Source of the DNA: an uncultured Candidatus Binatia bacterium
GTDB taxonomy: Bacteria; Desulfobacterota; Binatia; DP-6
DNA length: 64,000 bases
Reading direction: 5' to 3'
Assembly (NCBI GenBank): GCA_964432595.1
Contig: CAYSOF010000011.1
Location: forward strand, 47,757-111,756
Shown here: piece after piece, positions 8,197 through 44,534 of the stretch
Layout: each line of letters opens with the position of its first letter
Position numbering within the stretch: the first letter of the stretch is position 1
Made by a program: the position numbers and the translations under genes
Notes under the pieces: generated by a model
Told to the model about the DNA's origin: nothing
Database searches by the model: none
Seen by the model: only the letters and a program-made list of their open reading frames with translations

Positions 8197-8219
8197 GGAT
8201 CTCCTCGTGTGGGGTCGGT

Positions 8220-19726: not shown

Positions 19727-22456
<2,730 letters not shown>

Positions 22457-22460
22457 CGCC

Positions 22461-25189
<2,729 letters not shown>

Positions 25190-25196
<7 letters not shown>

Positions 25197-25210: not shown

Positions 25211-25469
25211 CGGGCGCCCGGCGCACGCGCGGCACGGCGCGACGTCCACGCCGTGCGGCGCCTGGCCCACGGCACGGGACTTGGAGCCACGACGGGCATG
25301 CCGTTGCCGCTCGATCCGCCCCCCCGCCGGCGTCCCGACGTCGCCGGATGGCTCCTCGTGCTCACCGGCGTGGTCGTGGTCGCGCTGCTCTTCGGGACGC
25401 TGCTGCTGGGAACGCTGCTCGCCACGTGGGGCTGACGGGCCATTTCCCTCCGGGCCGCCGATCGCATAC

Positions 25470-26651
25470 ATGGGCCGCCCCGTGACACGCCCGAACACGC
25501 CGGCCACCTTCGACATCGACGCCGTCGACCTCGACGCCTTCGCCCGCGACGTGCAGGCGCTCCGCAGCGAGCTGCGCGAGGCGCTCGGTCCCGACGACCT
25601 CCGCCATCTGCGCCGCATCGAGCGCTGGGGACGCATCGCCACCGCCGTCGGCCTGGCGACCGCATGGATCGCGCCGAACCCCGTCAGCGCGATCGGCCTC
25701 GGGCTCGGCCGCTCGAGCCGGTGGCTCCTGATGCACCACATCGGCCATCGCGGCTACGATCGCGTGCCCGGCGCACCGGCCCACCACACGTCGCGCGTGT
25801 TCGCGCGCGGCTGGCGCCGCCTGGTCCAGTGGGCCGATTGGATGGTGCCCGCCGCGTGGGTCTACGAGCACAACGTGCTGCACCACCAGCACACGGGCGA
25901 GCGCCGCGACCCGGACCTGATCGAGCAGAACGTCGCCGACATCCACGAGGCGCGCCTGCCGATGGCCGCACGCTGGGCGCTGCTCGGGCTGCTCGCCGCG
26001 ACGTGGCGCGCGTCGTACTACGCGCCCAAGACGCTGCGCGCGTGGTGGCACCGGCACGCCGCCGAGGACGCGCCGGCCGCCACGCCACGCGGCGTCTTCG
26101 TCCGCGCGTGCCTGGCGCCGTACGTGCTGCTGCAGCTCGTCGTCCTGCCGCTGCTGTTCGCGCCGCTCGGCGCATGGGCCGTCTTCTCGGCGTGGTGCAA
26201 CTCGCTGCTCGCCGACGTCGTCACCAACCTGCACACGTTCTTCGTCGTCGGTCCGAACCACAGCGGCGACGACGTGCTGCGCTTCGACGGCCCCGCCCGC
26301 TCGCGCGGCGAGTTCTACGTACGCCAGGTCGTCGGCTCGGTGAACTACCGGACGGGCGGCGACGTCGTCGACTTCGCGCACCTGTGGCTCAACTACCAGA
26401 TCGAGCACCACCTCTTCCCCGACCTGCCCATGCTCGCGTATCGCCGCGCGCAGCCGAAGGTCGCCGCGCTGTGCGCCCGCCACGGCGTCCCGTACCTGCA
26501 GGAGCCGGTCACGCGCCGCTTCGCGAAGATGGCGCGCATCTTCGTCGGCACCGCGCGCATGCCGTGGATGCGGGCGCCTGCCCCGCGACGCCGCGTCCGC
26601 CCCGTGCCGCTCGTCGCTGCGCGTACGGAGCCCGTCGCCGCCGAAGCCTGA
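25470..26651 (+). CDS. membrane fatty-acid desaturase
   Basis: Three His boxes (HHIGHRGY, HNVLHHQH, QIEHHLFP) and hydrophobic segments. 393 aa. Confidence 0.85.
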   Translation: MGRPVTRPNTPATFDIDAVDLDAFARDVQALRSELREALGPDDLRHLRRIERWGRIATAVGLATAWIAPNPVSAIGLGLGRSSRWLLMHHIGHRGYDRVPGAPAHHTSRVFARGWRRLVQWADWMVPAAWVYEHNVLHHQHTGERRDPDLIEQNVADIHEARLPMAARWALLGLLAATWRASYYAPKTLRAWWHRHAAEDAPAATPRGVFVRACLAPYVLLQLVVLPLLFAPLGAWAVFSAWCNSLLADVVTNLHTFFVVGPNHSGDDVLRFDGPARSRGEFYVRQVVGSVNYRTGGDVVDFAHLWLNYQIEHHLFPDLPMLAYRRAQPKVAALCARHGVPYLQEPVTRRFAKMARIFVGTARMPWMRAPAPRRRVRPVPLVAARTEPVAAEA

Positions 26652-26706: not shown

Positions 26707-28155
26707 ATGCGCGCCATGCGCATCCTCCTCCTGCTGGCGTCGCTCCTCCTCGTCCCGCGGCTCGCCGTATCGGCGGTCGCGGACCCGACCGTCGAAGGCC
26801 CCATCTCCGCCAGCACGGGCGGCGCCTTCATCGCCGGCACGACGTTCGACCTGGCCGACGTCGGCTACGTGCAGGAGGAGTTCTTCATCTCCGGCACCGC
26901 GACGGCGTTCACGTCGGCGAGCCCGCTCGCGTCGGACGGCGCGTGGTCGGTGACGCCGGCGAGCACGGCGGCGTACAAGACGCGCATCCTCGTGTATCGC
27001 CCGGCGCGCGCACGCTCGTTCGGCGGCACGGTCTTCGTCGAGTGGCTCAACGTCAGCGGCGGCCTCGACTCGGCGCCCGACTGGATCACCGCCCACATCG
27101 AGATGATCCGCGCCGGCATGGTGTGGGTCGGCGTCTCGGCGCAGTTCGTCGGCGTCGAGGGCGGCGGCGGCCTCGTCAGCCTGCCCCTCAAGAGCGTCAA
27201 CCCCCGGCGCTACGGCTCGCTCGTGCATCCGGGCGACAGCTACTCGTACGACATGTACTCGCAGGCCGGGCAGGCGCTGCGCGGGGCGTCGAGCGCGCGC
27301 ATCCTCGGCGGCCTCGTGCCCGAGGTCGTGATCGCCGCGGGCGAGTCGCAGTCGGCATCGCGCATGGTGACGTACGTGAACGGCATCCATCCGCTCGCCG
27401 GTGTCTTCGACGGCTTCCTGATCCACAGCCGCAGCGGCGGCGGCGCCCCCCTCGCGCAGAACCCCTTGCCGCCGATCAGCGTCGCGTCGCCGATGCGGAT
27501 CCGCACCGATCTCGACGTCCCCGTCTTCACCTTCCAGACGGAGACCGACGTCCCCAACTTCGTGGCGAGTCGCCAGCCGGACACGGACCGTCTCCGCCTC
27601 TGGGAAGTCGCGGGCACCGCACACGCCGACACCTACACGCTCGTCACCGGCATGACCGATCGCGGCGACGACCCGTCCGTCGCCGACGTCGTGATCATCT
27701 CCTCGCCGATCCCGGGCATCATCGACTGCGGCGCGCCGATCAACTCGGGGCCGCAGCATTTCGTGCTCGACGCCGCGCTCCACCATCTCGACCGCTGGAT
27801 ACGCCGCGGCACGCCGCCGCCGCACGGGCCGCTGCTCCAAACGCTGCCCGGCTCGACGACGTTCGCCACCGACGCGTTCGGGAACGTCCTCGGCGGCGTC
27901 CGGACGCCGTGGGTCGACGTGCCGGTGGCGACGCTGTCGGGCTTCGGCCAGCCGAGCGGCGGCAGCTTCTGCGGCCTCTTCGGCACGACCGTCGCCTTCG
28001 ACGACGCCACGCTCGACGCGCTCTACCCGTCGAACCGCATGTTCGTGCGCAAGTACCGCAAGGCGCTGACGCGGGCGGTGCGGTCCGGTTTCATGCGACG
28101 GCAGGACGCGACGCTGATCCGTCGGGGGCTCCGCGACGGCACCGTCGCCCCGTAG
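26707..28155 (+). CDS. secreted hypothetical protein (possible hydrolase)
   Basis: Signal peptide MRAMRILLLLASLLLVPRLAVSAVA. 482 aa, ordinary composition. Confidence 0.6.
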   Translation: MRAMRILLLLASLLLVPRLAVSAVADPTVEGPISASTGGAFIAGTTFDLADVGYVQEEFFISGTATAFTSASPLASDGAWSVTPASTAAYKTRILVYRPARARSFGGTVFVEWLNVSGGLDSAPDWITAHIEMIRAGMVWVGVSAQFVGVEGGGGLVSLPLKSVNPRRYGSLVHPGDSYSYDMYSQAGQALRGASSARILGGLVPEVVIAAGESQSASRMVTYVNGIHPLAGVFDGFLIHSRSGGGAPLAQNPLPPISVASPMRIRTDLDVPVFTFQTETDVPNFVASRQPDTDRLRLWEVAGTAHADTYTLVTGMTDRGDDPSVADVVIISSPIPGIIDCGAPINSGPQHFVLDAALHHLDRWIRRGTPPPHGPLLQTLPGSTTFATDAFGNVLGGVRTPWVDVPVATLSGFGQPSGGSFCGLFGTTVAFDDATLDALYPSNRMFVRKYRKALTRAVRSGFMRRQDATLIRRGLRDGTVAP

Positions 28156-28257: not shown

Positions 28258-30942
28258 ATGACGCGTTTTCTCGGCGTGCGTCCGGAGGACGGACGCACGG
28301 TCTGGACGGCGTTCGCGACGCTCATGACGATCGTCGCGGCGCATGCGGTCCTCGAGACCGCCCGCGACGCGCTCTTCCTGGCGGACCTGCCGGCGAGCCG
28401 CCTGCCCTGGGCGTATCTGGGCATCGCGACGCTCGCCTTCGTGACGGTGCGCCTCAGCGCACCGCTGGCGGCGCTCGGTCCGCCCCGCCGCATCCTCGCC
28501 ACCATGCTCGTGCTCGGTGCGGCCGGCACGGCGGCGTTCTGGCGGCTCCTCGGCACGCGCACCCCGACGGAGCTCATGGCGCTCTACGTCTGGACCGGGC
28601 TCCTCGCGTCGGTCGTCGTCACGCAGTTCTGGGTGCAGCTCGGCCATCGCATGGACGTCGGCCAGGCGCGCCGCGCCTACGCCGTCGTCGCCGCGGGCGG
28701 CATGCTCGGCGCGACCGTCGGCTCGCTCGTGGCGACCGCCGTGCTGGCGTTCCATGCGCCCCGGATGCTGCTGCCCGTCGCCGCGTCGATGTTCGCGCTC
28801 GCCGCCTGCCTGCCGCTCTTCGGCCGCGACGGGCCGGCGACGGCGGAGACGACCGCCACCGAGCCGGACGAGCCGCCCCCGACCGTGGCCGCGATCTGGG
28901 CCGACCCGTACCTGAAGCGCCTCCTCCCGCTCGCCGCCCTCGCGCCGATCGTCGCGATGGCGATCGACTTCGTCTTCAAGAGCGTCGTCACGTCCAGCGT
29001 GTCGCGCGACGCGCTCGGGCCGTTCTTCGCACGCTACAACGCGGTCGTGAACGGGCTGGCCCTCGCGTTCCAGCTGCTCGTCGCGCCCCGCCTCCTGCAG
29101 GGCATCGGCGTGGTCCGGAGCCTCTGCCTCTTCCCCGGCACGCTGGCCACCGTCGCCACCGGTGTCGCCCTGACGGGCGGCCTGCCCGCGGCGCTCCTCC
29201 TCCGCGGCACCGACGGCGTCCTCCGCCACTCCCTGCATCGCGCGGCCACCGAGATCCTCTTCGTTCCGCTCGCCGCGGCCACGCGCACCGCGCTGCGCGG
29301 TCTCGCGGAGTCGCTCGGCCAGCGCGGCGGGCAGGTCGTCGGCTCGCTCCTGATACTCGGCGCGATCGCGCTCGGCGCGACGCCGGAGACGCTCGCCGCG
29401 GCGGTGGCGGTGCTGTGCGGGCTGTGGCTGTACGGGTACGTCCGCCTCGAGCACCACTACGTCGACCGCTTCCGGACCCAGCTGCGAACGCTCGCCACCG
29501 CCGACGCGAGCGTCCCCCAGCTGGACGTGCGGTCGCTGGAGACGCTGGTCGTCACGCTGAGCGCGCCGAACGACGCCGAGGTGATCGCCGCGATGGACGT
29601 GCTCGCGAGCTTCGCGCGCACGCACCTCGTCCCGCCGCTCATCCTCTACCACCCGTCGCCCGCCGTCGTGGTGCGCGGGCTCGAGCTGTTCGAGGGCGTG
29701 ACGCGCGAGGACGTCCAGGCGATCCGCCGCCGCCTGCTCGAGCACGACGATCCGGCGGTCCGCGCCGCCGCGCTGCGCGCGCTCGCCGCCACCGGACTCG
29801 ACCAGGCCGCCGTGCGCCGCGTGCTGCGCGCCGATCGCTCGCCGCTCGTTCGATCGACCGCGCTCGTCCTCTGGACGGCGACGCGCGCCGACGGCGACAC
29901 CGATCTCGACGACGCCGTCGCGGACCTGCTCGCCGCGCCCGATCCGGCGTCGCGCCTCGCCGTGGCCGCGACGCTCGCCGAGCTGCCCGGCCGGCTCCTG
30001 CTGCCCGTGGCGCGCGCGTTGCTGCGCGACGGCACGCCGGCGATCCGCCGGCAGGTCGCCCGCGCGCTCGCGACCGATCCGGACCGCGCCCGCATCCCGG
30101 TGCTGACGGCGCTCGTCGCGTCGCCCGAGGCCCGCACCGCGGCGCGCGCGGGCCTCCTCGCCATCGGCACGCCCGCGCTCGAGCATCTCGCCACGGCCCT
30201 GGCGTCGGCCGACACGCCGCCGGCGCTGCGCCGCCACCTGCCGCGGTCGATCAGCCCCTTCGCGTCGCAGCGCGCCGCCGACGTCCTCGTCCACCAGCTC
30301 GACCGCGAGACCGACGGCCGCGTCCTCTACAAGATCTTGCGCGGGCTCGGCCGCATGCGCGCCGACGATCCCGCCCTGCAGGTCGACGGCACGATCCTGA
30401 TGCGTCATGCCCAGCGCACGCTCGAACGGACCATCGAGCTGCTCGCGTATCGCGTCGCCCACCTGCTGCTGCGCGGCACGCCCGCCACCGCCGTGGCGCC
30501 CGACGACCTGCTCGGCCGCCTGCTGGCCGAGAAGGAGCAACGCGCCCTCGAGCGCGCGTTCCGCGTCCTGCAGATCCTGCAGACGCAGGAGGACTTCGCC
30601 ACCATGTACGCCGCGCTGTCGTCCGACGCGCCGGCGACTCGCGCCGGCGCGCGCGAGCTGCTCGGCCACGTGCTCGACGGACCGCTGCGCGACGCGCTGC
30701 TGGCGCTCACCGACTCGCTGCCGCCCGCCGAGCGTCTCGTCGAGGCGCACCGCGCGCTCCCCGTCGCGGTCGCCGACCTGGCGCTCGCGGCGTGGCGCAC
30801 GCCCACGACCGCCGGGGCGGTCGCCGCCGCGCTCGACGGCATCGTCGCCGCGCTCCACGCGGACCGCAGCCAGACGCTCGCGGCCATCGCCCGCCACGAG
30901 CTGCACATCCCCATGACGGAGACGCCTCGTGCCGCCAGCTGA
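28258..30942 (+). CDS. TLC/MFS-like polytopic membrane domain fused to C-terminal HEAT-repeat domain
   Basis: N-terminal ~430 aa multi-TM region resembling the ATP/ADP-translocase (TLC) family. The C-terminal half carries repeated HEAT-like units (DPAVRAAALRALAATG, SPLVRSTALVLW, PASRLAVAATLAEL, TPAIRRQVARALATDP). Confidence 0.75.
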   Translation: MTRFLGVRPEDGRTVWTAFATLMTIVAAHAVLETARDALFLADLPASRLPWAYLGIATLAFVTVRLSAPLAALGPPRRILATMLVLGAAGTAAFWRLLGTRTPTELMALYVWTGLLASVVVTQFWVQLGHRMDVGQARRAYAVVAAGGMLGATVGSLVATAVLAFHAPRMLLPVAASMFALAACLPLFGRDGPATAETTATEPDEPPPTVAAIWADPYLKRLLPLAALAPIVAMAIDFVFKSVVTSSVSRDALGPFFARYNAVVNGLALAFQLLVAPRLLQGIGVVRSLCLFPGTLATVATGVALTGGLPAALLLRGTDGVLRHSLHRAATEILFVPLAAATRTALRGLAESLGQRGGQVVGSLLILGAIALGATPETLAAAVAVLCGLWLYGYVRLEHHYVDRFRTQLRTLATADASVPQLDVRSLETLVVTLSAPNDAEVIAAMDVLASFARTHLVPPLILYHPSPAVVVRGLELFEGVTREDVQAIRRRLLEHDDPAVRAAALRALAATGLDQAAVRRVLRADRSPLVRSTALVLWTATRADGDTDLDDAVADLLAAPDPASRLAVAATLAELPGRLLLPVARALLRDGTPAIRRQVARALATDPDRARIPVLTALVASPEARTAARAGLLAIGTPALEHLATALASADTPPALRRHLPRSISPFASQRAADVLVHQLDRETDGRVLYKILRGLGRMRADDPALQVDGTILMRHAQRTLERTIELLAYRVAHLLLRGTPATAVAPDDLLGRLLAEKEQRALERAFRVLQILQTQEDFATMYAALSSDAPATRAGARELLGHVLDGPLRDALLALTDSLPPAERLVEAHRALPVAVADLALAAWRTPTTAGAVAAALDGIVAALHADRSQTLAAIARHELHIPMTETPRAAS

Positions 30943-31855
30943 CGACGACGCGCCGATCGCACGGCTCCTCGTCATCAAGGCGCTGCCGCTGTTCGCGGAC
31001 GTCGGGGCCGACGAGCTCGCCGTCATCGCGGAGCACACGCACGCGCACAGCTTCGCCCGCGGCGAGACGGTCTTCGGCGGGCCCGACGTGCCCGTCGACA
31101 CGATCCACCTGATCCTCGACGGGCGCATCACCGAGCACCGGAACGGCCGGCCGTTCCGCACCTACGGGCCGCAACGCGTGCTCGGCGGCGTCGACGCGCT
31201 CGCACGCCGGGAGCGCACGGTGCACGCCGTCGCGGACGAGGACACGCGCACGATCGCCATCGATCGCACCGCGCTGCACGACATCCTCGAGGACAACTTC
31301 GGCATCCTCGCGGCCGCCCTGCAGGGCGTCGCCGGGGCCATCCTTCGCCTGCGCAACGTTCTGCCCTCCGCCGGCTTCGAGGGCGCGGCCGGGCACCACG
31401 GCGCGGCACCCGCGTTCGTCGACTCCCTCGCCGCGCGACTCACGCTGCTGCGCGACACGACGTGGCTCGGGCGCGCCGCCGTGCGCACGCTCGGCCAGCT
31501 GGCACGCGAGGCCCAGGTGGCCGCGATCACGGGCGACACGCGCCTCTGGTCCGCGGGCGACGTCGCCGAGCACGCGGTCGTGGTCCTGCGCGGCGCCGTC
31601 GCGTGCGCGCCGGCCGATCGCCGCGCCTTCCGGGTGGGGCCGGGCACGATCCTCGGGATGGAGGAATCCCTGGCGCTCGACCCGCGTTGGTGTGACGCCG
31701 CCGTCGCGGGCGACGCGACGCTCCTGACGCTCACGCGCACGGCGCTGCTCGACGCGCTCGAAGACGACACCGACAGCGCCGTCGCCGTGCTGGCGGGGAT
31801 GGCGAGCGTCGCGAGCGGGCTGCGCGACCTGGTGGCCGAGGAAGGTTCCGCATGA
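30929..31855 (+). CDS. tandem cyclic-nucleotide-binding-domain protein (no HTH)
   Basis: Two CNB-like modules (FARGETVFGGPDVPVDTIHLILDGRI and LWSAGDVAEHAVVVLRGAV...GPGTILGMEE). Overlaps the upstream gene by 14 nt and the downstream gene by 4 nt. Confidence 0.7.
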   Translation: MPPADDDAPIARLLVIKALPLFADVGADELAVIAEHTHAHSFARGETVFGGPDVPVDTIHLILDGRITEHRNGRPFRTYGPQRVLGGVDALARRERTVHAVADEDTRTIAIDRTALHDILEDNFGILAAALQGVAGAILRLRNVLPSAGFEGAAGHHGAAPAFVDSLAARLTLLRDTTWLGRAAVRTLGQLAREAQVAAITGDTRLWSAGDVAEHAVVVLRGAVACAPADRRAFRVGPGTILGMEESLALDPRWCDAAVAGDATLLTLTRTALLDALEDDTDSAVAVLAGMASVASGLRDLVAEEGSA

Positions 31856-32874
31856 CGTCCACGTTCGTCCGTGTCCTGGCGGCGCTGCTGCTGCCCGTCG
31901 CCGTCGGGTGTGCGCGCCCGCCGTCGCCCCCCGGGGCGCAGGCGCCGCGCTATCGCGACCGCTCCGCGTCCCCGCCCGGCAACAACTGGCCCATCTCCGC
32001 GCGCCGCGCCGAGCGGCTCTTCACGCGCGCGCCCATCGAGATGGCGTCCGTGACGCGCACCGAGACGGGCGTGGCCGGCGCGTTCAAGGCCGAGGTCGAG
32101 TTCCCGCCCGACCCGCGCCGCGTCACGATCAAGTGGAAGCCGGCGTCCGGCGACGACATGGACAACTGGAACAACAACCCGCGCAAAGAGGTGGCGGCGT
32201 ACGTGATCCAGCAGTGGTTCCTCGAGCCGCGCGACTACGTCGTGCCGACCACGGCCGTCCGCTGCGCCCCGCTCGACGCGTACCGCCGCCTCGAGCCCGA
32301 GGCCACGCCCACGATCGAGGGCACGCGCTGCGTCCTCGGCATGGTGTCGCTCTGGCTCGACCACGTGACGGTCCCCGAGCCGCTCTACGATCCCGACCGC
32401 TTCGCGCGCGACTACCGCTACGCGTACCACCTGGCCGACTTCAACGTGCTCGCCTACCTGATCCGCCACCGCGACGGCCGCGCGGGCAACATCCTCGTCG
32501 CCGACGACGACGCGAACCGCCGCGTCTTCGCCATCGACAATGGGATCAGCTTCGACGGGCTGGTCTACAACTTCCTCGTCTCGAACTGGGACGAGATCCG
32601 CGTGCCCGCGATCCGCCGCGAGGTGGTCGAGGAGCTGCGGGACGTCGACCGCGAGGACCTCGAGGAGCTCGGCACGCTCATCGAGATGCGCGCCGACAAG
32701 CACGGCGTGCTCCGCAACGTGCGCCCCACCGCGCCCATCGATCCGACGCAGGGGGTCCGCATCGCGCCGGGGCGGGTGCAGATGGGGCTCACCACCGCGG
32801 AGATCGACGGCCTCGCCACGCGCATCCGCGACCTGCTCCACCGCGTCGACCAGGGAACGCTCGCGGTCTTCTGA
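31852..32874 (+). CDS. lipoprotein with protein-kinase-like domain (atypical kinase)
   Basis: Lipobox LLLPVAVGCARPP. Gly-loop-like ETGVAGAF. Beta3-Lys-like RRVTIKWKP. Catalytic-loop-like HRDGRAGNILV (HRDxxxxN spacing). DNG (DFG-like) 17 residues later. Confidence 0.65.
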   Translation: MTSTFVRVLAALLLPVAVGCARPPSPPGAQAPRYRDRSASPPGNNWPISARRAERLFTRAPIEMASVTRTETGVAGAFKAEVEFPPDPRRVTIKWKPASGDDMDNWNNNPRKEVAAYVIQQWFLEPRDYVVPTTAVRCAPLDAYRRLEPEATPTIEGTRCVLGMVSLWLDHVTVPEPLYDPDRFARDYRYAYHLADFNVLAYLIRHRDGRAGNILVADDDANRRVFAIDNGISFDGLVYNFLVSNWDEIRVPAIRREVVEELRDVDREDLEELGTLIEMRADKHGVLRNVRPTAPIDPTQGVRIAPGRVQMGLTTAEIDGLATRIRDLLHRVDQGTLAVF

Positions 32875-34184
32875 TGCGAGAGCAGAAGCTCCTCGGAGCG
32901 GTCGGCGCCGTACGGCGCGAGGAGTGGCCGTTCGCGCTCTGCATGTTCACCTACGTCTTCCTCGTCATCGCCACGTTCTGGATCCTGAAGCCGCTCAAGA
33001 AGAGCCTCTTCCTCCAGCACTACGACGCGGCCGGGCTCACGCTGCTCGGCCATCGCTTCGCCGCCGCCGAGGCCGAGCTGTTCGCGAAGGTCCTCAACAT
33101 GGTCGTGGCCGCGGCGGCCGTCGCGGCGTTCACGTGGCTCGCGGGACGCCTCCGCCGCGAGCGGCTCACCGCGGCGTTGATGGCGTTCTTCGTGGCGGCC
33201 GACGTGGCGTTCGGCCTCGTGCTGGCCAGGCCCGGCGCCGCCACCGTCTGGACCTTCTACCTCTACGGCGACCTCTTCAGCACGCTGATGGTCGCGACGT
33301 TCTTCGCCTTCCTGAACGACAGCGTCACGCCGGAGGCGGCGAAGCGGCTCTACGGCTTCGTCGGGCTGGGCGCCGTCGTCGGCGGCGTCGTCGGCAGCAG
33401 CGTCCTCGGCGCGCTCGTGACCGCCCTCGGCGCGCCGACCTGGGCGTTCGTCTGCGCGGCCGTCGGGCTCGTGATCGTCGCCGTCGCCTGGCGGGCGGGC
33501 GCCCTGGTCCGCGACCACGCGTCGACGCCGCCGGCCGAGCCCGAGCCGCGCGGCGAGCGCAGCGCCGCGCTCGAGGGTGCCGCCCTGGTGTTCGCGTCCC
33601 GCTATCTGCTCGCCATCACCGCGATGGTCGCGGTCTACGAGGTCGTCTCGACGGTGATGGACTTCCAGTTCACCAGCACCGTCTCGCACTATCTCGACGG
33701 CGACGCGATCGGACGGCACCTGTCGCGCGTCTTCGCGGTGACGAACGTCGCGTCGATGCTGGTGCAGCTGTTCCTCACCAGCACGATCATGCAGCGCTGG
33801 GGCGTCGGCGCCGCGCTCCTCGTCCTGCCCTGCACGACCGGTCTCGGCGCCGCGGCGTTCCTCGCCTGGCCGAGCCTGTGGGTCGGGAGCGCCCTCAACA
33901 CGGCCGACAACGCGTTCAGCTACTCGGTCAACCAGTCGGCGAAGGAGGCGCTCTACGTGCCCACCACGCCGGACGAGAAGTACAAAGCCAAGGCGTTCAT
34001 CGACATGTTCGTGCAGCGCTTCGCGAAGACGCTGGGCGTCGGGCTGAGCCTCGCCATGGGCGCCTGGTTCGGCGACTTCGCGAGCGTCCGCTGGCTGTCG
34101 CTGGTCACGCTGGCGCTCGCCGGCGTGTGGGTGCTCGCCGCCCGGTACGCGGGACGCCGATTCGCCGAGGAGGAGGCGGCGTAG
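32874..34184 (+). CDS. TLC-family (ATP/ADP translocase-like) nucleotide transporter
   Basis: 433 aa, ~12 TM segments. N-terminal KPLKKSLFLQHYDAAG typical of the TLC family. TGATG overlap with the upstream gene. Confidence 0.75.
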   Translation: MREQKLLGAVGAVRREEWPFALCMFTYVFLVIATFWILKPLKKSLFLQHYDAAGLTLLGHRFAAAEAELFAKVLNMVVAAAAVAAFTWLAGRLRRERLTAALMAFFVAADVAFGLVLARPGAATVWTFYLYGDLFSTLMVATFFAFLNDSVTPEAAKRLYGFVGLGAVVGGVVGSSVLGALVTALGAPTWAFVCAAVGLVIVAVAWRAGALVRDHASTPPAEPEPRGERSAALEGAALVFASRYLLAITAMVAVYEVVSTVMDFQFTSTVSHYLDGDAIGRHLSRVFAVTNVASMLVQLFLTSTIMQRWGVGAALLVLPCTTGLGAAAFLAWPSLWVGSALNTADNAFSYSVNQSAKEALYVPTTPDEKYKAKAFIDMFVQRFAKTLGVGLSLAMGAWFGDFASVRWLSLVTLALAGVWVLAARYAGRRFAEEEAA

Positions 34185-34187
34185 CCC

Positions 34188-34790
34188 TCACCCGAGATGC
34201 TCGACGACGTCGAAGCGCAGCACGCGCGCGGCCGGGTCGAGCTCGAGCTCCGTGATGCTGGTGTTGCGCGTGTGGTAGCCGGTCCACTTGCGGGGGTCGT
34301 CGTGCAGGAGGCGGGCGATGCCGATCGCGATGGCCGCACCGTGGCTCACCGCGACCACCTCGCGGCCCGGGTGCGCCGCCGCGATGTCGCGCCACGCCGT
34401 CACGACGCGGTCGGCGACGCCGCCGAGCGACTCGCCGCCCGACGGGGCCCACGCGAGATCCTCGGCCTGCACGAAGAAGCGATGCCGGTCGAGCAGGTCG
34501 CTGAACTTTTCGTTCTCGTAAACGCCGATGCCGTACTCCGCGAGGCCCGGCGATTTCATGAGCGGCAGGTCGAGCGCCTCGGCGATGGCGGCCGCCGTCG
34601 CCGCCGCGCGCTGGAGCGGGCTCGTGTAGACGGCCGCCAGGTCCGGGCGCGTCCGCGCGAGGTACGCGGCCACCTGCTGCGCCTGCCAGCGGCCCTGGTC
34701 CGTGAGCGCGTGGTCGGTCGAGCCGTGCCAGCGCTGCTCGAGATTGGCGGGAATCTGGCCGTGACGGACGAGAAGCAACCGGGCGGACAT
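34188..34790 (-). CDS. histidine phosphatase (phosphoglycerate-mutase) family protein
   Basis: LLLVRHGQ (RHG catalytic motif) and a downstream SHGAAI histidine. Confidence 0.8.
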   Translation of the reverse strand: MSARLLLVRHGQIPANLEQRWHGSTDHALTDQGRWQAQQVAAYLARTRPDLAAVYTSPLQRAAATAAAIAEALDLPLMKSPGLAEYGIGVYENEKFSDLLDRHRFFVQAEDLAWAPSGGESLGGVADRVVTAWRDIAAAHPGREVVAVSHGAAIAIGIARLLHDDPRKWTGYHTRNTSITELELDPAARVLRFDVVEHLG

Positions 34791-34883: not shown

Positions 34884-36182
34884 ATGCCTCGGGCCTCCCG
34901 ATCCTGCGCGACCTTCCTCGTCGCGGCCCTGCTCGCCGGTGGTTGCAGCCACACGCGCCCATACGTCCGTGGGCCGGCCACCACGCCCGCCCCCGCGCCA
35001 TCGGCGATCGACCATCGGCTGATCCTGATCGGCGACGCCGGTGACGCGAATCCGGACGGCGAGCCGGCGCTCGATCTGCTCGAGGAGCGCGTCCGGGTCG
35101 CGCCGGGCATGACCACCGTCGTCTTCCTCGGCGACAACGTCTACGAGACCGGCATGCCGGACCCGACCGATCTCGAGTGCACCGCGCTCGAGAGCATTCT
35201 CGACGAGGTGCTGCTGAACCTCTACGAGAGCCGATGCGAGGCCGAGCGCCTCCTGAAGGCCCAGGTGAAGGCCGTCCGCGTTCCGGGCGCGCGCGCCATC
35301 TTCATCCCGGGCAATCACGACTGGGATCAGTTCGGCGTCGGCGGGTTCAAGCGCGTGCTCAATCAGCAGGCGTTCATCTTCCAGCTGCGCACGGCCACCC
35401 AGGACATCGCCGAGGTCAGCATGCTGCCCGGCAACGGGTGTCCGGGCCCGACGACGGTCGACATCGGGCGCCGTGGCCGGCTGGTCATCCTCGACACGCA
35501 GTGGTGGGTCGACGTCGGCACGAAGCCGACGCCGGAGCACAATCCGACGTCGTGTCCGTACGTCACCGAGGCGGACGTCCTCGCGGCACTCCTGCGCGAG
35601 ATCGAGGCGGGTGTCGCCGCCGGACGCGAGGTCGTGGTCGTCGGCCATCATCCGCTCGCCAGCAAGGGCCCGCACGGGGGGCACGTCGACCCCGTCGTGC
35701 ACCTCTTTCCGCTCACGATGCTCAGCACGTACGTGCCGTTCGTCGTGCGCTGGCTGCCCCTCCCGGTCCTGGGCTCCGTGGCCGCGTGGCTGCGCGCGAA
35801 CCGTTCGCCGAGCGGCCAGGATTTCTCCGGGCCCGGCAACGCGGAGATGCGGAAGGCCCTCGAGACCACCATGGCGACGGCGGCGTCGCGCGGCGCCACG
35901 CCGCTGCTGTACGCCGCCGGCCACGACCACAGCCTGCAGGTCTTCGAGGCCCGCAGCGGCCCGCGCTATACGGTCGTCAGCGGGCTCGGCTCGAGCTCGA
36001 AGCAGTCGGAAGTGCGGCACGACCACTGGACGCGCTTCGCCCACGCCGACGCGACCCGCCCCGGCCTGATGGAGGTCGACTTCACCACCGACGGCCACGC
36101 GCGCCTCGCGGTGTACGAGTGGTCTCCGGAGCGCAAGGGCGGCGAGGAGGTCTACGCGCTCGAGCTCACCGCGGGCTGGTGA
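34884..36182 (+). CDS. metallophosphoesterase (calcineurin-like) lipoprotein
   Basis: Lipobox LVAALLAGGCSHT. Metal motifs LILIGDAGD, VFLGDNVYE, FIPGNHDWD, VVVGHHP. Confidence 0.75.
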   Translation: MPRASRSCATFLVAALLAGGCSHTRPYVRGPATTPAPAPSAIDHRLILIGDAGDANPDGEPALDLLEERVRVAPGMTTVVFLGDNVYETGMPDPTDLECTALESILDEVLLNLYESRCEAERLLKAQVKAVRVPGARAIFIPGNHDWDQFGVGGFKRVLNQQAFIFQLRTATQDIAEVSMLPGNGCPGPTTVDIGRRGRLVILDTQWWVDVGTKPTPEHNPTSCPYVTEADVLAALLREIEAGVAAGREVVVVGHHPLASKGPHGGHVDPVVHLFPLTMLSTYVPFVVRWLPLPVLGSVAAWLRANRSPSGQDFSGPGNAEMRKALETTMATAASRGATPLLYAAGHDHSLQVFEARSGPRYTVVSGLGSSSKQSEVRHDHWTRFAHADATRPGLMEVDFTTDGHARLAVYEWSPERKGGEEVYALELTAGW

Positions 36183-36636: not shown

Positions 36637-36820
36637 CGAGCGCTCCGATGCCGGAGCCGGTCGGCACGTCACACCACGACGCGGGGCTGCCACGTCCCGG
36701 ACGTAGCCCATCCGCGCACGGAAAACATCTCGGGCCTGCCGCCCTTCCCCGGGTTCCGCCCGGCGTTCTCCCGTCATGTCAGGAGTACACGGATGCGGCG
36801 ATTCGCGGATAACGATCGTC

Positions 36821-39544
36821 ATGCGTGCTCTCGCCGTCCTGCTCGCCCTCGCGCTGCCCTCGCTCGCCCTGGCCCAGGCCGCACGGAACGTCGAGCCCGT
36901 CGTCCTGACCGGCGCCGAGGTGCCGGCGTGGTCGCGGCTTCCCGCCCTCACCGTGTGCGCCCCGTATCCCTCGGGCACGACCGGCGGCCGCGACGCGCAC
37001 AACGGCACGACCATCGTCCCGCCCGACGTTCGCACCGGCGTCGCCGTCGACGACGTCGTGGCGTTCCGCTGGACGGGGCTCGCCTGGGTCGAGATCCGGG
37101 TGCAGGTCGACGAACGCTTCGACTACTGCCTGTCGAACCCGCCGTCGGACTTCGCGCTGTACTCCGGCACGGACAAGGAGCTCACGTACGCGTGGGACGT
37201 CGAGAGCTGGAAGAAGACCGACGGCCAGTGCGTCGCCGCCTATCCGCCCGGCGCCGCGCCGACGCCGGATCCCGTCGCCACGCTCGACGACGACGACGAG
37301 ATCGTCTTCATGGCGAGCGACGCGGGCCAGCAGGCGCCGCTGGCGGTGCTGACGCCGCCCGGCACCAGCAACGGCCAGGCGGTCGCCGTGGTCGACCCGT
37401 TCGATCCCACGGCGCCGGCGTTCGTCTACCTCTTCCTGCGCGCCGGCGGCTCGTCGTTCGACGCGTCGAGCGGCTACGTCGACTATACGCGCGATGCGAA
37501 CGCCGACGAGTGGATCGATCGCCACTCGATCGCCGCCGACGACCCCGAGATCCTCGGCGTCAGCAACACCGGCTACGGCCCGAACCTGCCCGGCGACGTC
37601 TGCCGCACGGCCGTGTCGCCCGGCTATCCGGCGACGCCCGACGGTGCGCCGCGCCCGTCGACGGACCGCTTCGTGCGCGACGGCGTCACCGTCGCCACCG
37701 ACGCCTACGAATGGCGCGCGACCGGCCGTTGGATGGTGCGCGGCCTGCGCGTCGCGAAGCCCGGACAGCCGGGCGTCTACGGCCCCGACCTGATCGACCG
37801 CTGGAAGGGGCGCGCGTTCCAGCAGAGCCCCGACTCGACGATCTCGCTCGTCGGCTTCGAGGACGAGCAGGTGAACTGGGAGGCGAACAGCGCGCTCCTC
37901 GGCGAGCGCGTCGGGCCGGTGCGCGCGATCCGCGAGGTGTGGGGCGCCGACTCGGGCACCAACGTCACGAAGACCGAAACCTTCTATCGCGACGCGGTGG
38001 CGTACCGGTACCACGTGCGCGTCCATCCCATCCCGCCCGACGGCCTCTACACGTCGTGGGACTACAACGCCGGCGTCGCCACGCGGTACTACAACCTGCT
38101 GAAGCCGAACGGCGTCGCGATCGACGGCGTCAACGACGACGTCGGCAACGTCGACGGCCTCTTCGGCGTTCCCGCGTTCTTCGATGCGCCCGACCCGACG
38201 TTCAACGTGCCGAGCGCGATCCTCAACTGGGAGCAGATCTCGGGCGCCGGCGACGCCGGCGCGCTCGTCTACATCCTCGAGCTGAAGGGCGCGACGACGC
38301 TCGTGAACCCGGCCGTCGTGCCGTACTACCGCGACGACAAGTGCCTCGACGACGGCACGGGCGACGACCCGGTCGCGCGGCCCTGGCCCGGCGAGGCGTC
38401 GACCGACCCGCGCGTGCAGGCCGGCTATGCCGCCGCGGCGGGCGGCACGCCCTACCCGCAGCTCACGTGCGACCAGAAGCAGGGCGCCTGGGGCGCGCAC
38501 GGCGTCCACTACTTCGTCACCGGCGACAGCGACAACGCCGCGTCGCCCGAGGTGCTGACGGAGATCGACGCGCAGCAGTGGCAGTTCACCGTGCCGACGG
38601 CGGCGCCGGCGAACGTCGCGCAGCCCTACGCGAACACGGTGATCCTGCCGCTCCTGACGGTCGTCACGCCGATCGTCGGCCCGCCGCCGCTGCTCGCGCC
38701 GAGCGCGGCCGACGCGTCGGCCGTCACGCCGCAGGACACGCCGGTCGGCGTGACGCTCGCGGGCGGCGATCTCCTGACCTGCGAGCTCGGCTTCACGATC
38801 GTGACGCCGCCCGCGCACGGCACGCTCGGCGCGATCACGGGCGAGGCATGCACGCTCGGCCTGCCGTCGTCGGACACCGCGCGCGTCACCTACACGCCGG
38901 AGCCGGGCTACGCCGGCAGCGACGCGTTCACGTACCGCACGAACGACGGTCTGTTCGACTCGTCGCCGGCGTCCGTGTTCCTCACCGTCGAGCCGCTGCC
39001 GCCGCCGACCTGCGCGAACGGACCCGTCGTCGGCTGCCGGCGGCCGGTGCGGACGGACAAGGCGACGCTGTCGGTGACGGACCGCTCGCCCGACGTGAAC
39101 GACGAGCTGACGTGGAAGTGGACCGCCGGCGCGGCGACGACGCTCGCCGACTTCGGCACGCCGCTCACGACGACGAGCCATCAGCTGTGCGTCTACGACG
39201 GCGCAGGCGACACGGTCGCTCGCGCGAGCGTGCCGCCGGGCGGGACGTGCGACGGCCGGCCGTGCTGGTCGGCGAAGGGCAGCCGCTATCTGTACCGGAG
39301 CCGCGAACGCGTTCCCGGCGGCGGCAAGCGCAGCACGCTCCGGCTGACGCTCGCGGCCGGCATCGACGGCAAGGCGAAGATTCTCCTGAAGGGCCGCGGC
39401 GTCCACTTCGGGCTCGACGCCCTCCCCTGGGCGCAGCCCGTCGTCGTGCAGCTGAAGAACGGCGAGGGCGAGTGCTGGGAGGCACGGTACGACGCGCCGG
39501 CGCGGCGCAACCAGCCGGGACGGTTCCTCGACAAGGGTGACTGA
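36821..39544 (+). CDS. large secreted protein with Ig/cadherin-like domain and C-terminal recurrent beta-domain
   Basis: Signal peptide MRALAVLLALALPSLALAQA. Ig-like unit (VTYTPEPGYAGSDAFTYRTNDG). C-terminal ~180 aa domain shared with four other proteins in the window. Confidence 0.75.
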   Translation: MRALAVLLALALPSLALAQAARNVEPVVLTGAEVPAWSRLPALTVCAPYPSGTTGGRDAHNGTTIVPPDVRTGVAVDDVVAFRWTGLAWVEIRVQVDERFDYCLSNPPSDFALYSGTDKELTYAWDVESWKKTDGQCVAAYPPGAAPTPDPVATLDDDDEIVFMASDAGQQAPLAVLTPPGTSNGQAVAVVDPFDPTAPAFVYLFLRAGGSSFDASSGYVDYTRDANADEWIDRHSIAADDPEILGVSNTGYGPNLPGDVCRTAVSPGYPATPDGAPRPSTDRFVRDGVTVATDAYEWRATGRWMVRGLRVAKPGQPGVYGPDLIDRWKGRAFQQSPDSTISLVGFEDEQVNWEANSALLGERVGPVRAIREVWGADSGTNVTKTETFYRDAVAYRYHVRVHPIPPDGLYTSWDYNAGVATRYYNLLKPNGVAIDGVNDDVGNVDGLFGVPAFFDAPDPTFNVPSAILNWEQISGAGDAGALVYILELKGATTLVNPAVVPYYRDDKCLDDGTGDDPVARPWPGEASTDPRVQAGYAAAAGGTPYPQLTCDQKQGAWGAHGVHYFVTGDSDNAASPEVLTEIDAQQWQFTVPTAAPANVAQPYANTVILPLLTVVTPIVGPPPLLAPSAADASAVTPQDTPVGVTLAGGDLLTCELGFTIVTPPAHGTLGAITGEACTLGLPSSDTARVTYTPEPGYAGSDAFTYRTNDGLFDSSPASVFLTVEPLPPPTCANGPVVGCRRPVRTDKATLSVTDRSPDVNDELTWKWTAGAATTLADFGTPLTTTSHQLCVYDGAGDTVARASVPPGGTCDGRPCWSAKGSRYLYRSRERVPGGGKRSTLRLTLAAGIDGKAKILLKGRGVHFGLDALPWAQPVVVQLKNGEGECWEARYDAPARRNQPGRFLDKGD

Positions 39545-39612
39545 GCGCATGCCGGGTGCGCCGAGCTTTTGCCGTTGACCTCCGTGGGCGCCGATCCGTA
39601 CAGTCCGGACGC

Positions 39613-43360: not shown

Positions 43361-43602
43361 CCAGGGCCGCCGTCGCCGTCGGGCTCGTCCTCGTCGTCGG
43401 CGCGCCGGCGCTCGGGCAGCTCGCGCCCGGCTGGCCCGCGGACGACCGTCCCGGCCAGGCTCTCGATCGACAGCGCGGCGAGTCGCTCGACGACTACCAC
43501 CGGCGCCTCGAGCAGTGGCGCGACAGCTCGCACGACGAGCGTCGCGAGATGCTCGATCGCCGCCCCGGCAGTGGGGGCGCCGGCGAGGAGCCCGAGGAGT
43601 AG
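43357..43602 (+). CDS. small secreted protein (81 aa)
   Basis: ATGA overlap with the upstream gene. Signal peptide MTRAAVAVGLVLVVGAPALG. Charged C-terminal half. Confidence 0.45.
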   Translation: MTRAAVAVGLVLVVGAPALGQLAPGWPADDRPGQALDRQRGESLDDYHRRLEQWRDSSHDERREMLDRRPGSGGAGEEPEE

Positions 43603-43607
43603 CGGCC

Positions 43608-44534
43608 ATGTCGCCCGCCACCGTGCCGCTCGCGACCGGGCTCGGCGTGTGGATCGGTGCCGCGCTGTACGTGCACTGGCGGGGCCGCGAGCGCTTGAGC
43701 TTCATGCGGCAGCTCGCCGATCACTCGACGCTGCTCGCGCCCTACAACGCGTTCGTCTACCTCTGCTCGGCCGTCCCCCGGCGTCCGCGGCTGGACGTCG
43801 ACGCGTTCCCCGAGCTGCGCGTGCTGCGGGAGAACTGGCAGACGATCCGCGACGAGGGCCTGGCGCTCCATGCCGCCGGCCACGTCCGCGTGGCGGAGCG
43901 GCACAACGACCTCGCGTTCAACTCGTTCTACAAGCGCGACTGGCGCCGCTTCTATCTGAAGTGGTACGGCCGCCCCCTGCCCTCCGCGACGTCGCTGTGT
44001 CCGCGCACGGTCGAGCTCCTCGCCCACACGCCGAGCGTGCACGCCGCGATGTTCACGATGCTCGCGCCGAAGAGCCACCTCGTGCGGCATCGCGACCCCT
44101 TCGCGGGCTCCGTACGCTTCCATCTCGGCCTGTCGACGCCGAACTCCGACGACTGCCGCATCTTGATCGACGGCGAGCCGTATCACTGGCGTGACGGCGA
44201 AGCGGTGGTCTTCGACGAGACCTACATCCACCGCGCCGAGAACCGTACCGACATGCCGCGGTTGATCCTGTTCTGCGACGTCGAGCGCCCGCTGCGCGGG
44301 CGTCTCGCCACCGCGATCAACCGGTTCGCGATCCATCGGGTGATGGGCATCACGGCGACGGCGAACGTCGACGGCGAGCCCGTGGGCATCGCCAACCGCG
44401 TGTTCGAGCGCGTGTACCACGTGCGCCTGCTCATGAAGCGCCTGCGCAAGCGCAGCCGCCCCCTCTACTACGCGCTGTCCTGGGGCACGAAGCTCGGCGT
44501 GGCGGCCCTGCTCGTCTGGCTCGCGCTCGGCTAG
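43608..44534 (+). CDS. aspartyl/asparaginyl beta-hydroxylase-family 2OG-Fe(II) oxygenase, membrane-anchored (LpxO/OlsC-like)
   Basis: N-terminal TM LATGLGVWIGAALYVHW. AspH-family core (LAPKSHLVRHRDPFAGSVRFHLGL...ETYIHRAEN). Confidence 0.8.
   Translation: MSPATVPLATGLGVWIGAALYVHWRGRERLSFMRQLADHSTLLAPYNAFVYLCSAVPRRPRLDVDAFPELRVLRENWQTIRDEGLALHAAGHVRVAERHNDLAFNSFYKRDWRRFYLKWYGRPLPSATSLCPRTVELLAHTPSVHAAMFTMLAPKSHLVRHRDPFAGSVRFHLGLSTPNSDDCRILIDGEPYHWRDGEAVVFDETYIHRAENRTDMPRLILFCDVERPLRGRLATAINRFAIHRVMGITATANVDGEPVGIANRVFERVYHVRLLMKRLRKRSRPLYYALSWGTKLGVAALLVWLALG

Follow-up and report, generated by a model that had tools for sequence, protein, structure and literature searches.

The periplasm is usually taken to be devoid of ATP, and the processes of the bacterial envelope are explained by energy transduced through the inner membrane or by donors other than ATP, for example undecaprenyl pyrophosphate. 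LpxT, a PAP2-type phosphotransferase, takes undecaprenyl pyrophosphate and not ATP as its donor, and a lipid-pyrophosphate donor is the accepted way round the missing periplasmic ATP. Lipid A is phosphorylated by LpxT on the periplasmic face of the Gram-negative inner membrane (PMC2229476). The module described here would solve the periplasmic donor problem differently. It was found in a stretch of 64,000 nucleotides from an uncultured Candidatus Binatia bacterium (assembly GCA_964432595.1, contig CAYSOF010000011.1, positions 47,757 to 111,756 of the forward strand; this whole stretch is called the window below), and its centre is an operon in which the gene of a predicted exported lipoprotein with a kinase fold stands together with two transporter genes of the NTT/TLC type. 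We propose, from the sequences and the models built on them, that a closed, regulated phosphorylation cycle would run outside the cytoplasm, the kinase lipoprotein being fuelled by NTT-type export of ATP and reversed by a phosphatase; we give this reading a probability of about 0.55.

Among described kinases, those of the Fam20 family (the Golgi casein kinase Fam20C and the xylosylkinase Fam20B) are structurally near to the protein of the window, but they share 13-17% identity with it and it has no Fam20C Pfam match; it also differs from them in being bacterial and, by prediction, lipid-anchored, in its length of about 320 amino acids (aa) when mature, in its catalytic loop HRDGRxGN and in its metal motif DNG. 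PI4KIIalpha and PI4KIIbeta, structurally near as well, are eukaryotic and face the cytosol, and the Pfam score of our protein is sub-threshold (20.6 vs 27.1 bits). CtkA of Helicobacter pylori and CotH of the Bacillus spore coat are exported atypical kinases with 8-9% identity to it. ATP is available in both of the places where they act, the host cell for CtkA and, while the spore is being assembled, the mother cell for CotH, and we know of no dedicated nucleotide carrier described for either of them. The nearest functional analogue, as far as the analogy holds, would be the eukaryotic secretory-pathway kinase system, with Fam20 in a lumen which imports ATP. There the logic is alike: the lumen of both endoplasmic reticulum (ER) and Golgi is an ATP-free compartment fed by a nucleotide exchanger for luminal ATP-dependent enzymes. 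The carriers of the eukaryotic ER and Golgi belong to other families (SLC35-type) and not to TLC/NTT, and we know of no genetic link in eukaryotes between the luminal ATP carrier and the enzymes. That the eukaryotic ER imports ATP is stated in PMC9286291.

On the side of the transporters, the architectures NTT-HEAT and NTT-HEAT-cNBD (cNBD, cyclic-nucleotide-binding domain) are widespread in free-living bacteria and functionally uncharacterised (Major, Embley and Williams 2017, PMC5381601). Our operon opens with exactly that architecture, namely a HEAT-tailed NTT (28258-30942) and then a cNMP_binding gene (30929-31855), with an overlap of 14 nt at 30929-30942. The word "kinase" has 0 occurrences in that article (PMC5381601), and the link to an exported kinase and an exported phosphatase is an addition of the present analysis. 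A literature search on periplasmic ATP and kinases, on bacterial relatives of Fam20 and PI4KII and on the function of NTT-HEAT proteins found no description of the module within the literature searched. The protein would be a secreted atypical kinase, of a kind already known, whereas the system, should the mechanism be right, would be a novelty among bacteria.

The four genes of the operon are all on the forward strand. The first one (28258-30942, 894 aa; Pfam TLC and HEAT_2) encodes an NTT/TLC-type transporter domain with cytoplasmic HEAT repeats. The second (30929-31855, 308 aa; Pfam cNMP_binding twice, E 1e-15) encodes two cyclic-nucleotide-binding domains without any other output domain; its product is presumed to be a cytoplasmic regulator, and the gene is kept upstream of the kinase in many homolog loci. 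Then come the kinase itself (31852-32874, 340 aa), assigned to an atypical Fam20/PI4KII-like fold from its homolog family, structure model and fold matches and belonging to a family which we call K1, and a second NTT/TLC-family transporter, TLC437 (32874-34184, 436 aa; Pfam TLC). The kinase start overlaps the stop of the preceding gene (ATGA) and its stop overlaps the start of the following one (TGATG), which together with the 14-nt overlap means that the four genes form one translationally coupled unit. The GC content of the window is 70-76%, and the kinase open reading frame (ORF) reaches 0.98 at third codon positions (GC3), which marks it as a real coding sequence in DNA so rich in GC. A Shine-Dalgarno sequence, GAGGAAGG, is placed 6 nt 5' of the ATG at 31852, which is the earliest possible start in this ORF. 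A preliminary description of this DNA, made from the letters and their translations, had given exactly this kinase ORF and had named TLC-family genes on its flanks; Pfam confirms these as TLC (32874-34184) and as TLC with HEAT (28258-30942).

The motifs listed in the preliminary description (LLLPVAVGC, ETGVAGAF, RRVTIKWKP, PRKEVAAYV, HRDGRAGNILV and DNG) are all present in that order, and the Asn indeed follows the Asp of HRD by five residues (D208 to N213); a single spacing has to be corrected, as DNG begins 16 residues after the Asn (N213 to D229) and not 17. The Gly-rich loop ETGVAGAF (residues 71-78, nucleotides 32062-32085, + strand like all features of this gene), which contains G73 and G76, lies between the strands 63-69 and 78-84 of our structure model. 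K94, the beta3 lysine of RRVTIKWKP (89-97; codon 32131-32133), is in model strand 87-97 and would contact the phosphates of ATP, and E113, the alphaC glutamate in the PRKE of PRKEVAAYV (110-118; codon 32188-32190), is in model helix 111-123. The catalytic loop HRDGRAGNILV (206-216; 32467-32499) holds D208, the predicted catalytic Asp, and N213, the predicted metal-binding Asn, and the equivalent of DFG is DNG (229-231; 32536-32544), directly after model strand 225-227, with D229 as the predicted metal-binding Asp. Across 41 homologs (44-75% identity) the residues G73, G76, K94, P110, R111, E113, D208, R210, N213, D229, N230 and G231 are invariant, which puts the motifs far beyond chance. The same five catalytic positions read K-E-D-N-D nearly without exception in 88 related loci, a set of 80 genomic loci with homolog genes to which 8 more were added, which we searched with the window's neighbour proteins. 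In one clade of metagenome-assembled genomes (MAGs), labelled Syntrophobacterales, Syntrophobacteria or Deltaproteobacteria, Gln stands in place of N213 and all the other catalytic residues are kept (L055, L058, L059, L062, L063, L066, L067, L074).

K1 is an unnamed family without a Pfam model. A word-indexed search returned 193 homologs, all of about 340 aa, hypothetical or unnamed, and none of the 193 carries a precomputed Pfam domain; an exhaustive profile search of 1.84 billion representatives gave 649 clusters at E<=1e-3, 501 of them at E<=1e-10. The closest relatives are from Binatia MAGs, and the taxa named among the loci are Binatia, Myxococcota, "Deltaproteobacteria", Syntrophobacterales, Gemmatimonadota, Acidobacteriota and a few others.

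The sole Pfam match of the kinase is to PI3_PI4_kinase (PF00454; residues 185-253, E 4.7e-4), below the gathering threshold as said above, and its fused relatives score 16-20 bits with the same model. The profiles of Hanks-type kinases (Pkinase and PK_Tyr_Ser-Thr) do not match it, nor does the Fam20C profile (PF06702) at E<=1. A faint match to the NCBIfam SCO1664 family (12.8 bits vs a cutoff of 172) gives no membership, and we took as noise both the chemoreceptor ligand domains found by a PDB sequence search with the protein (E 0.15-0.37) and the tyrosyl-tRNA synthetase found by a PDB search with the family profile (E 0.3-0.6). An AlphaFold2 model computed from the family alignment is confident (pLDDT 87.5, pTM 0.83), and the order of its secondary-structure elements is that of a kinase: beta1 (63-69), the Gly loop, beta2 (78-84), beta3 (87-97) with K94, alphaC (111-123) with E113, then beta4, beta5, a long helix (188-203), the catalytic loop, beta6, beta7 and DNG. 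Foldseek against the PDB returned kinases exclusively, with PI4KIIalpha on top (E 8e-7), ahead of PI4KIIbeta and the Fam20 Golgi casein kinase. In structure comparison the values are 15.8, 15.4 and 15.4 for the Fam20 family, 15.1 for PI4KIIalpha (20-21% identity), 11.2 for CtkA, 11.1 for actin-fragmin kinase, 10.7 for CotH, about 8.5-11 for HipA and the PI3K-like kinases and about 6.5-7.5 for Hanks-type kinases. The protein thus has the two marks of the protein-kinase-like superfamily, a bilobal fold by structure comparison and the catalytic set in canonical order. Of the "eukaryotic-like" kinase core first proposed for it, the kinase core stands, by fold and by motifs, but a Hanks-type affiliation does not, as Pkinase gives no match and the structural neighbours are Fam20 and PI4KII. 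As modelled, it is an atypical member of the superfamily, nearest to Fam20 and PI4KII, and its substrate, on the same model, need not be a protein. Residues from about 255 to 340 have no counterpart in known kinases, the alignments spanning about 230-240 residues.

The N-terminus of the kinase, MTSTFVRVLAALLLPVAVGC, agrees with a PROSITE-type lipoprotein rule, which asks for a basic residue, a hydrophobic stretch free of charges and a lipobox [LIVMFWSTAG](2)-[LIVMFYSTAGCQ]-[AGS]-C with its Cys in the first 35 residues: it has R7, six uncharged residues and VA-V-G-C. The lipobox LLLPVAVGC pointed out in the preliminary description occupies residues 12-20; the predicted signal peptide is MTSTFVRVLAALLLPVAVG followed by C (31852-31911, +), with Cys20 as the predicted lipidation site and a helix at residues 2-17 in the model. 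Among the 210 N-complete homologs of K1, 123 have a strict lipobox, 61 another hydrophobic N-terminal signal (many of these being lipobox variants or signals of the signal-peptidase-I type) and 26 none. A consistent lack of signal peptides among homologs, which was named at the outset as what would speak against export, is not what we see, with a lipobox or a hydrophobic signal in 184 of the 210. The DNA upstream of the conserved core in the 88 loci gives the same picture, with signals kept across phyla. This means that the signal-less forms are not artefacts of start-codon choice.

Two cysteines vary together with the signal. Cys138 in beta4 (32263-32265, +) and Cys160 at the start of beta5 (32329-32331, +; conserved at 90% or more) are predicted disulfide partners; of 71 signal-bearing loci 59 have both cysteines, of 11 signal-less loci none has both, two borderline loci having been put into the signal-less class by eye. 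This pattern is, we infer, the one expected for a disulfide that would be needed solely outside the cytoplasm. The signal-less paralogs (L001, L005, L006, L013, L020, L028, L033, L041, L048, L050, L061) have lost one or both of the conserved cysteines and kept all the catalytic residues, for example with LGC turned into LGY in a charged N-terminus; they look like a cytoplasmic offshoot of the exported family. Gene fusions bear on the same question. In P0195 and P0212 a signal peptide precedes the kinase and a Metallophos domain with the PPP signature GDVHG...GDVMDRG...GNHE, and in P0132 it precedes a beta-lactamase-like domain and the kinase; these partners are periplasmic-type domains behind signal peptides, which supports export. 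Taken together with the signals, they support a kinase which would be exported and lipid-anchored.

In the clade of P0132 (L018, L021, L026, L036, L038, L039, L043) the additional domain has a class-A-like beta-lactamase/transpeptidase fold (Pfam Beta-lactamase2), and TLC genes are found 2-8 kb off on the opposite strand. A signal-less Y_phosphatase3 gene is near the kinase in L018, L021, L026, L036 and L039.

We then come to the genomic link between the kinase and the TLC genes, counted on deduplicated loci. A TLC gene lies within 10 kb of the kinase in 39 of the 71 signal-bearing loci and in 27 of the 37 signal-bearing loci whose flanks are 5 kb or longer on each side; in 25 of these 37 the distance is 3 kb at most, and in 15 the two genes are directly adjacent on the same strand. 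Among the signal-less loci the count is 0 of 11. These paralogs, with the catalytic set kept and neither the Cys pair nor a TLC gene, are the best internal control for the idea of ATP supply. Direct adjacency of kinase and TLC gene persists at 38-46% kinase identity and spans Binatia, Myxococcota, Syntrophobacterales and one gammaproteobacterial MAG. The two are even fused in P0203, which consists of a TLC domain, a loop of 40 residues, six of them Lys/Arg, one additional hydrophobic helix and a kinase domain; twelve carrier helices and the extra one would put that kinase outside. The association was also tested in reverse, from the side of the transporter, with 80 metagenome loci taken from an alignment of TLC437-type carriers (53-73% identity), 40 of which have 1.1 kb or more upstream. 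A K1 kinase is found upstream on the same strand in 19 of these 40 (within about 160 bp in 17, about 1.2 kb off in two), and 8 further loci of the 40 have other exported kinase-like genes. The TLC link suggested by the preliminary description is therefore borne out by conserved synteny, by the P0203 fusion and by the reverse association, and the coupling of kinase and TLC gene is not a local accident.

Besides K1 we distinguish two more families of exported kinase-like genes, K3 and K2. Neighbour clustering of stop-to-stop ORFs produced, in DNA of 72% GC, many antisense or alternative-frame artefact clusters, and only clean clusters with Pfam or fold support were kept. K3 proteins (about 280-300 aa, with a signal peptide) have weak Pfam matches to HipA_2 and Fam20C and align with K1 by hhalign over 180 columns with a probability of 80% and E 1e-5; K3 is a remote relative of K1. 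K2 proteins (about 555 aa, with a signal peptide) have the motifs NDADRRAANTL and YLIDMGSAFG, a C-terminal FN3-like domain, at least 2001 homologs and no Pfam model. The hhalign comparison of K2 with K1 is not significant (E about 0.06-0.1), and the fold of the predicted K2 structure matches CtkA, Fam20 and PI4KII; the kinase nature of K2 is thus based on the structure prediction and not on hhalign. The TLC module recurs in two of three loci sampled from the K2 side: the order is Omp85, K2, TLC, TLC-HEAT, cNMP_binding in L169 and Omp85, Metallophos, K2, insertion sequences with MFS fragments, TLC-HEAT in L170, and the third locus has no TLC gene. Three exported kinase families, distinct though structurally related, with one type of transporter fit a common co-substrate better than a common product.

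Some details of these loci may be added. K3 genes (L133:1649-2557 on the + strand; L129 at 4058-4849, 6551-7432 and 7448-8290; L135, L127, L144, L148) often flank TLC437-type genes in tandem copies. K2 genes were found in L165:3-1754 (+), L092, L124, L130, L162, L168, L169:5001-6761 and L170:5001-6668. An Omp85-family gene is directly upstream of the K2 kinase at L169:3598-5001 and L170:2576-4027, which may mean that the system includes a component in the outer membrane or that K2 is exported to the surface. The K2 module of L170 is split by a pair of transposase genes, one Y1_Tnp and one of DDE type (L170:6925-9852), with short MFS/TLC-like fragments at the position of the small TLC gene, so that this copy of the module is apparently disrupted.

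As for the transporters, TLC437 scores 75.6 bits with Pfam TLC (cutoff 21), and its family profile finds the solved ATP/ADP carriers 9j3n and 9j3j (Arabidopsis plastid NTT1) with E 1e-30 and 2e-29. With these carriers it has in common their most conserved motif, Y..S.KE..Y.P.D.D/E.K.K.KA.ID, whose basic residues are invariant in the TLC437 family, and residues 40-426 of the HEAT-tailed protein (28258-30942) align to the entire TLC437 profile with E 1e-33. NTT carriers have both termini in the cytoplasm. By hydropathy counts the TLC proteins have 8-11 helices where 12 are expected, and because the counts fell short the topology rests on knowledge of the family and on the K/R-rich loop of P0203. 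In the literature NTT carriers have 12 predicted helices and exchange ATP for ADP plus inorganic phosphate (Pi) at 1:1, and a conserved lysine, K527 in AtNTT1 and K446 in PamNTT1, binds the gamma-phosphate or Pi (PMC2606016). The candidates for its counterpart in TLC437 are the lysines of the shared motif, all of them invariant.

Phosphatases accompany the kinase in several forms. Downstream of the operon of the window, a metallophosphoesterase lipoprotein (34884-36182, +, 432 aa; Pfam Metallophos) has a signal which ends LLAGG directly before C, in agreement with the lipoprotein rule, and weak matches to purple acid phosphatases in the PDB; from its sequence and position we propose it as the opposing phosphatase of the kinase. 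Its homologs adjoin the kinase in L023, L035, L051, L060, L061 and L069, and the Metallophos domain fused to the kinase in P0195 and P0212 is of another type. The operon of the Syntrophobacterales clade consists of the kinase lipoprotein, TLC and a Y_phosphatase3 lipoprotein with a CX5R motif, a Pfam E of 1e-68 and a lipobox (L058, L059, L062, L063, L066 and L067, which have enough downstream sequence). Next to the operon of the window and convergent to it is a gene for a histidine-phosphatase superfamily protein without signal peptide (34188-34790, -, 200 aa; Pfam His_Phos_1, E 6e-48); L003, L009, L014 and L075 have this gene in the same place, and it is a divergent neighbour of the signal-less paralogs in L005 and L006.

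The mechanism that we propose is the following. The NTT-type carriers, TLC437 and its HEAT-tailed paralog, would export cytoplasmic ATP or another nucleoside triphosphate (NTP) to the periplasm by counter-exchange; the kinase, anchored in the membrane beside the carrier, would phosphorylate a substrate in the envelope (a lipid head group, a glycan or a protein) and release ADP; an exported phosphatase, here the metallophosphoesterase lipoprotein, would take the phosphate off again as Pi; and ADP and Pi, the known return substrates of NTT carriers, would go back into the cell. The HEAT tail and the cNMP-binding protein would gate this costly export of ATP.

Several points weigh against this cycle. 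About a third to half of the TLC437-type loci are without a nearby kinase, and a TLC gene within 10 kb is missing from 10 of the 37 well-flanked exported loci. The Fisher test on the TLC association of signal-bearing and signal-less kinases (p 3-5e-4) ignores shared ancestry, and the P0203 fusion, being a single cluster which could come from an error of assembly or gene calling, is supportive at most. That the motif residues share a nucleotide pocket rests, in the model, on motif order, secondary structure and fold matches. Every K1 homolog found is from a MAG or a metagenome, with no cultured organism that has the family seen. ATP in the periplasm could leak through porins. On the side of the carrier, TLC437 reaches 71.9 bits where the NCBIfam NTP/NDP-exchanger family TIGR00769 has a cutoff of 387.2, which means that it belongs to a distant subfamily with nucleotides as putative cargo; and PamNTT1, a member characterised in depth, is kinetically biased to the import of ATP and not to its export (PMC1951785).

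This distance of TLC437 from the known exchangers, to which a Pfam MFS_1 score of 31.9 bits (cutoff 33.4) may be added, favours a reading in which the carrier is truly linked to the kinase but moves its substrate or its product, by importing a phosphorylated small molecule made outside or by exporting a precursor, the external phosphoryl donor coming from elsewhere; the presence of small-molecule and glycan kinases (PI4KII, the Fam20-type xylosylkinase) among the structural relatives goes in the same direction. We hold it to be unlikely, as the characterised members of the carrier family all carry nucleotides or NAD (PMC2606016), the Lys-rich motif common with ATP/ADP carriers is invariant, the module encodes no alternative external donor and the association of three exported kinase families with one carrier type fits a co-substrate better. 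Another reading would retain the need for external nucleotide and change the reaction: the kinase fold would serve some other ATP-dependent chemistry, such as AMPylation or glutamylation, or belong to a regulatory pseudokinase. Sequence alone cannot tell these reactions apart, and the C-terminal part without counterpart in known kinases leaves room for one of them. Atypical kinase-fold proteins are known for reactions other than phosphorylation, for example SelO, and SidJ is reportedly a glutamylase according to work by Black and colleagues in 2019. SelO-type AMPylators, however, bind ATP in a flipped orientation with altered motifs, whereas here the set for phosphotransfer (beta3 Lys, alphaC Glu, Asp, Asn and the Asp of DxG) is invariant and in standard order, and the co-occurring phosphatases of three families fit a phosphate ester as product, so that we find this reading less probable again.

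The import bias of PamNTT1, and the import of nucleotides by characterised NTTs in general, are accommodated if the lipoprotein is a periplasmic receptor or scavenger which hands ATP or other nucleotides to an importing NTT, the whole serving nucleotide or phosphate scavenging; adjacent exported phosphoesterases are typical of phosphate scavenging, and a secondary transporter with a lipoprotein next to it is reminiscent of binding-protein-dependent uptake. A pure binding protein would nevertheless not need the catalytic Asp, the Asn and the metal-binding Asp, which are invariant over 38-100% identity; moreover the cytoplasmic paralogs, signal-less and with no transporter, have the same catalytic set, and the HEAT and cyclic-nucleotide domains point to control from inside the cell. 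These facts make scavenging improbable in our opinion, below the two readings just discussed. Lastly, export and lipidation are predictions and a subgroup of K1 is clearly without signals, so one may think of an ordinary cytoplasmic atypical kinase with a non-functional signal peptide or a coincidental synteny. This we consider very improbable and already largely refuted: the ATG at 31852 is the first start and has its Shine-Dalgarno sequence, the next Met, M64, would delete conserved residues, the signals are kept across phyla and tracked by the Cys pair, and the translational coupling, the P0203 fusion and the TLC enrichment seen from both sides all argue for a genuine association. The phosphorylation cycle fuelled by exported ATP is the reading that we keep.

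The surroundings of the module in the window are described here for completeness. Upstream, two tandem paralogous genes (19727-22456 and 22461-25196, +) encode sigma-54 enhancer-binding proteins, each of them about 910 aa long and having a GAF-like region, AAA+ and HTH_8, and between this pair and the operon there are a fatty-acid desaturase gene (25281-26651) and an Abhydrolase_10 gene (26707-28155); in the close Binatia relative a GerE regulator and the desaturase are found there instead. Downstream there are large genes on the + strand, 36776-39544 (922 aa, one Big_9 domain), 39556-42441 (961 aa, no Pfam match) and 44613-47831 (1072 aa, six DUF5122 beta-propeller repeats), and a gene of the Asp/Asn beta-hydroxylase family at 43515-44534. 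The cNMP-binding protein (30929-31855) has weak matches in NCBIfam to family 2B encapsulin shell proteins, in their cNMP-binding part, and in PADLOC to Pycsar models, most likely reflecting just the common cyclic-nucleotide-binding domain. A context of anti-phage defence or mobile elements was considered and rejected: neither kinase nor carrier nor phosphoesterase has a PADLOC match, and no match to plasmids was found.

A wider reading, which we put forward tentatively and at a little under even odds, is that many uncultured diderms (Binatia, Myxococcota, Syntrophobacterales, Gemmatimonadota, Latescibacterota and others) would energise their periplasm with ATP through second-messenger-gated NTT-type exchangers, for a reversible phosphorylation of the envelope by exported kinases like Fam20, PI4KII or CtkA and by phosphatases. 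Such a system would be the counterpart, in prokaryotes, of the secretory-pathway kinases, to which it might be related by descent, and would explain the NTT-HEAT-cNBD architecture. The genes are compact, which makes the idea directly testable by expression, transport assays and periplasmic ATP sensors. If it is true, at least two unnamed families of bacterial secreted kinases would be defined, a bacterial analogue of Fam20-type secretory-pathway phosphorylation would be at hand, and a testable function would be provided for NTT and NTT-HEAT-cNBD genes in free-living bacteria, a question left unsettled since the catalogue of 2017. The picture of an ATP-free periplasm would then be challenged, as some bacteria would purposely supply periplasmic nucleotide for regulated phosphorylation.

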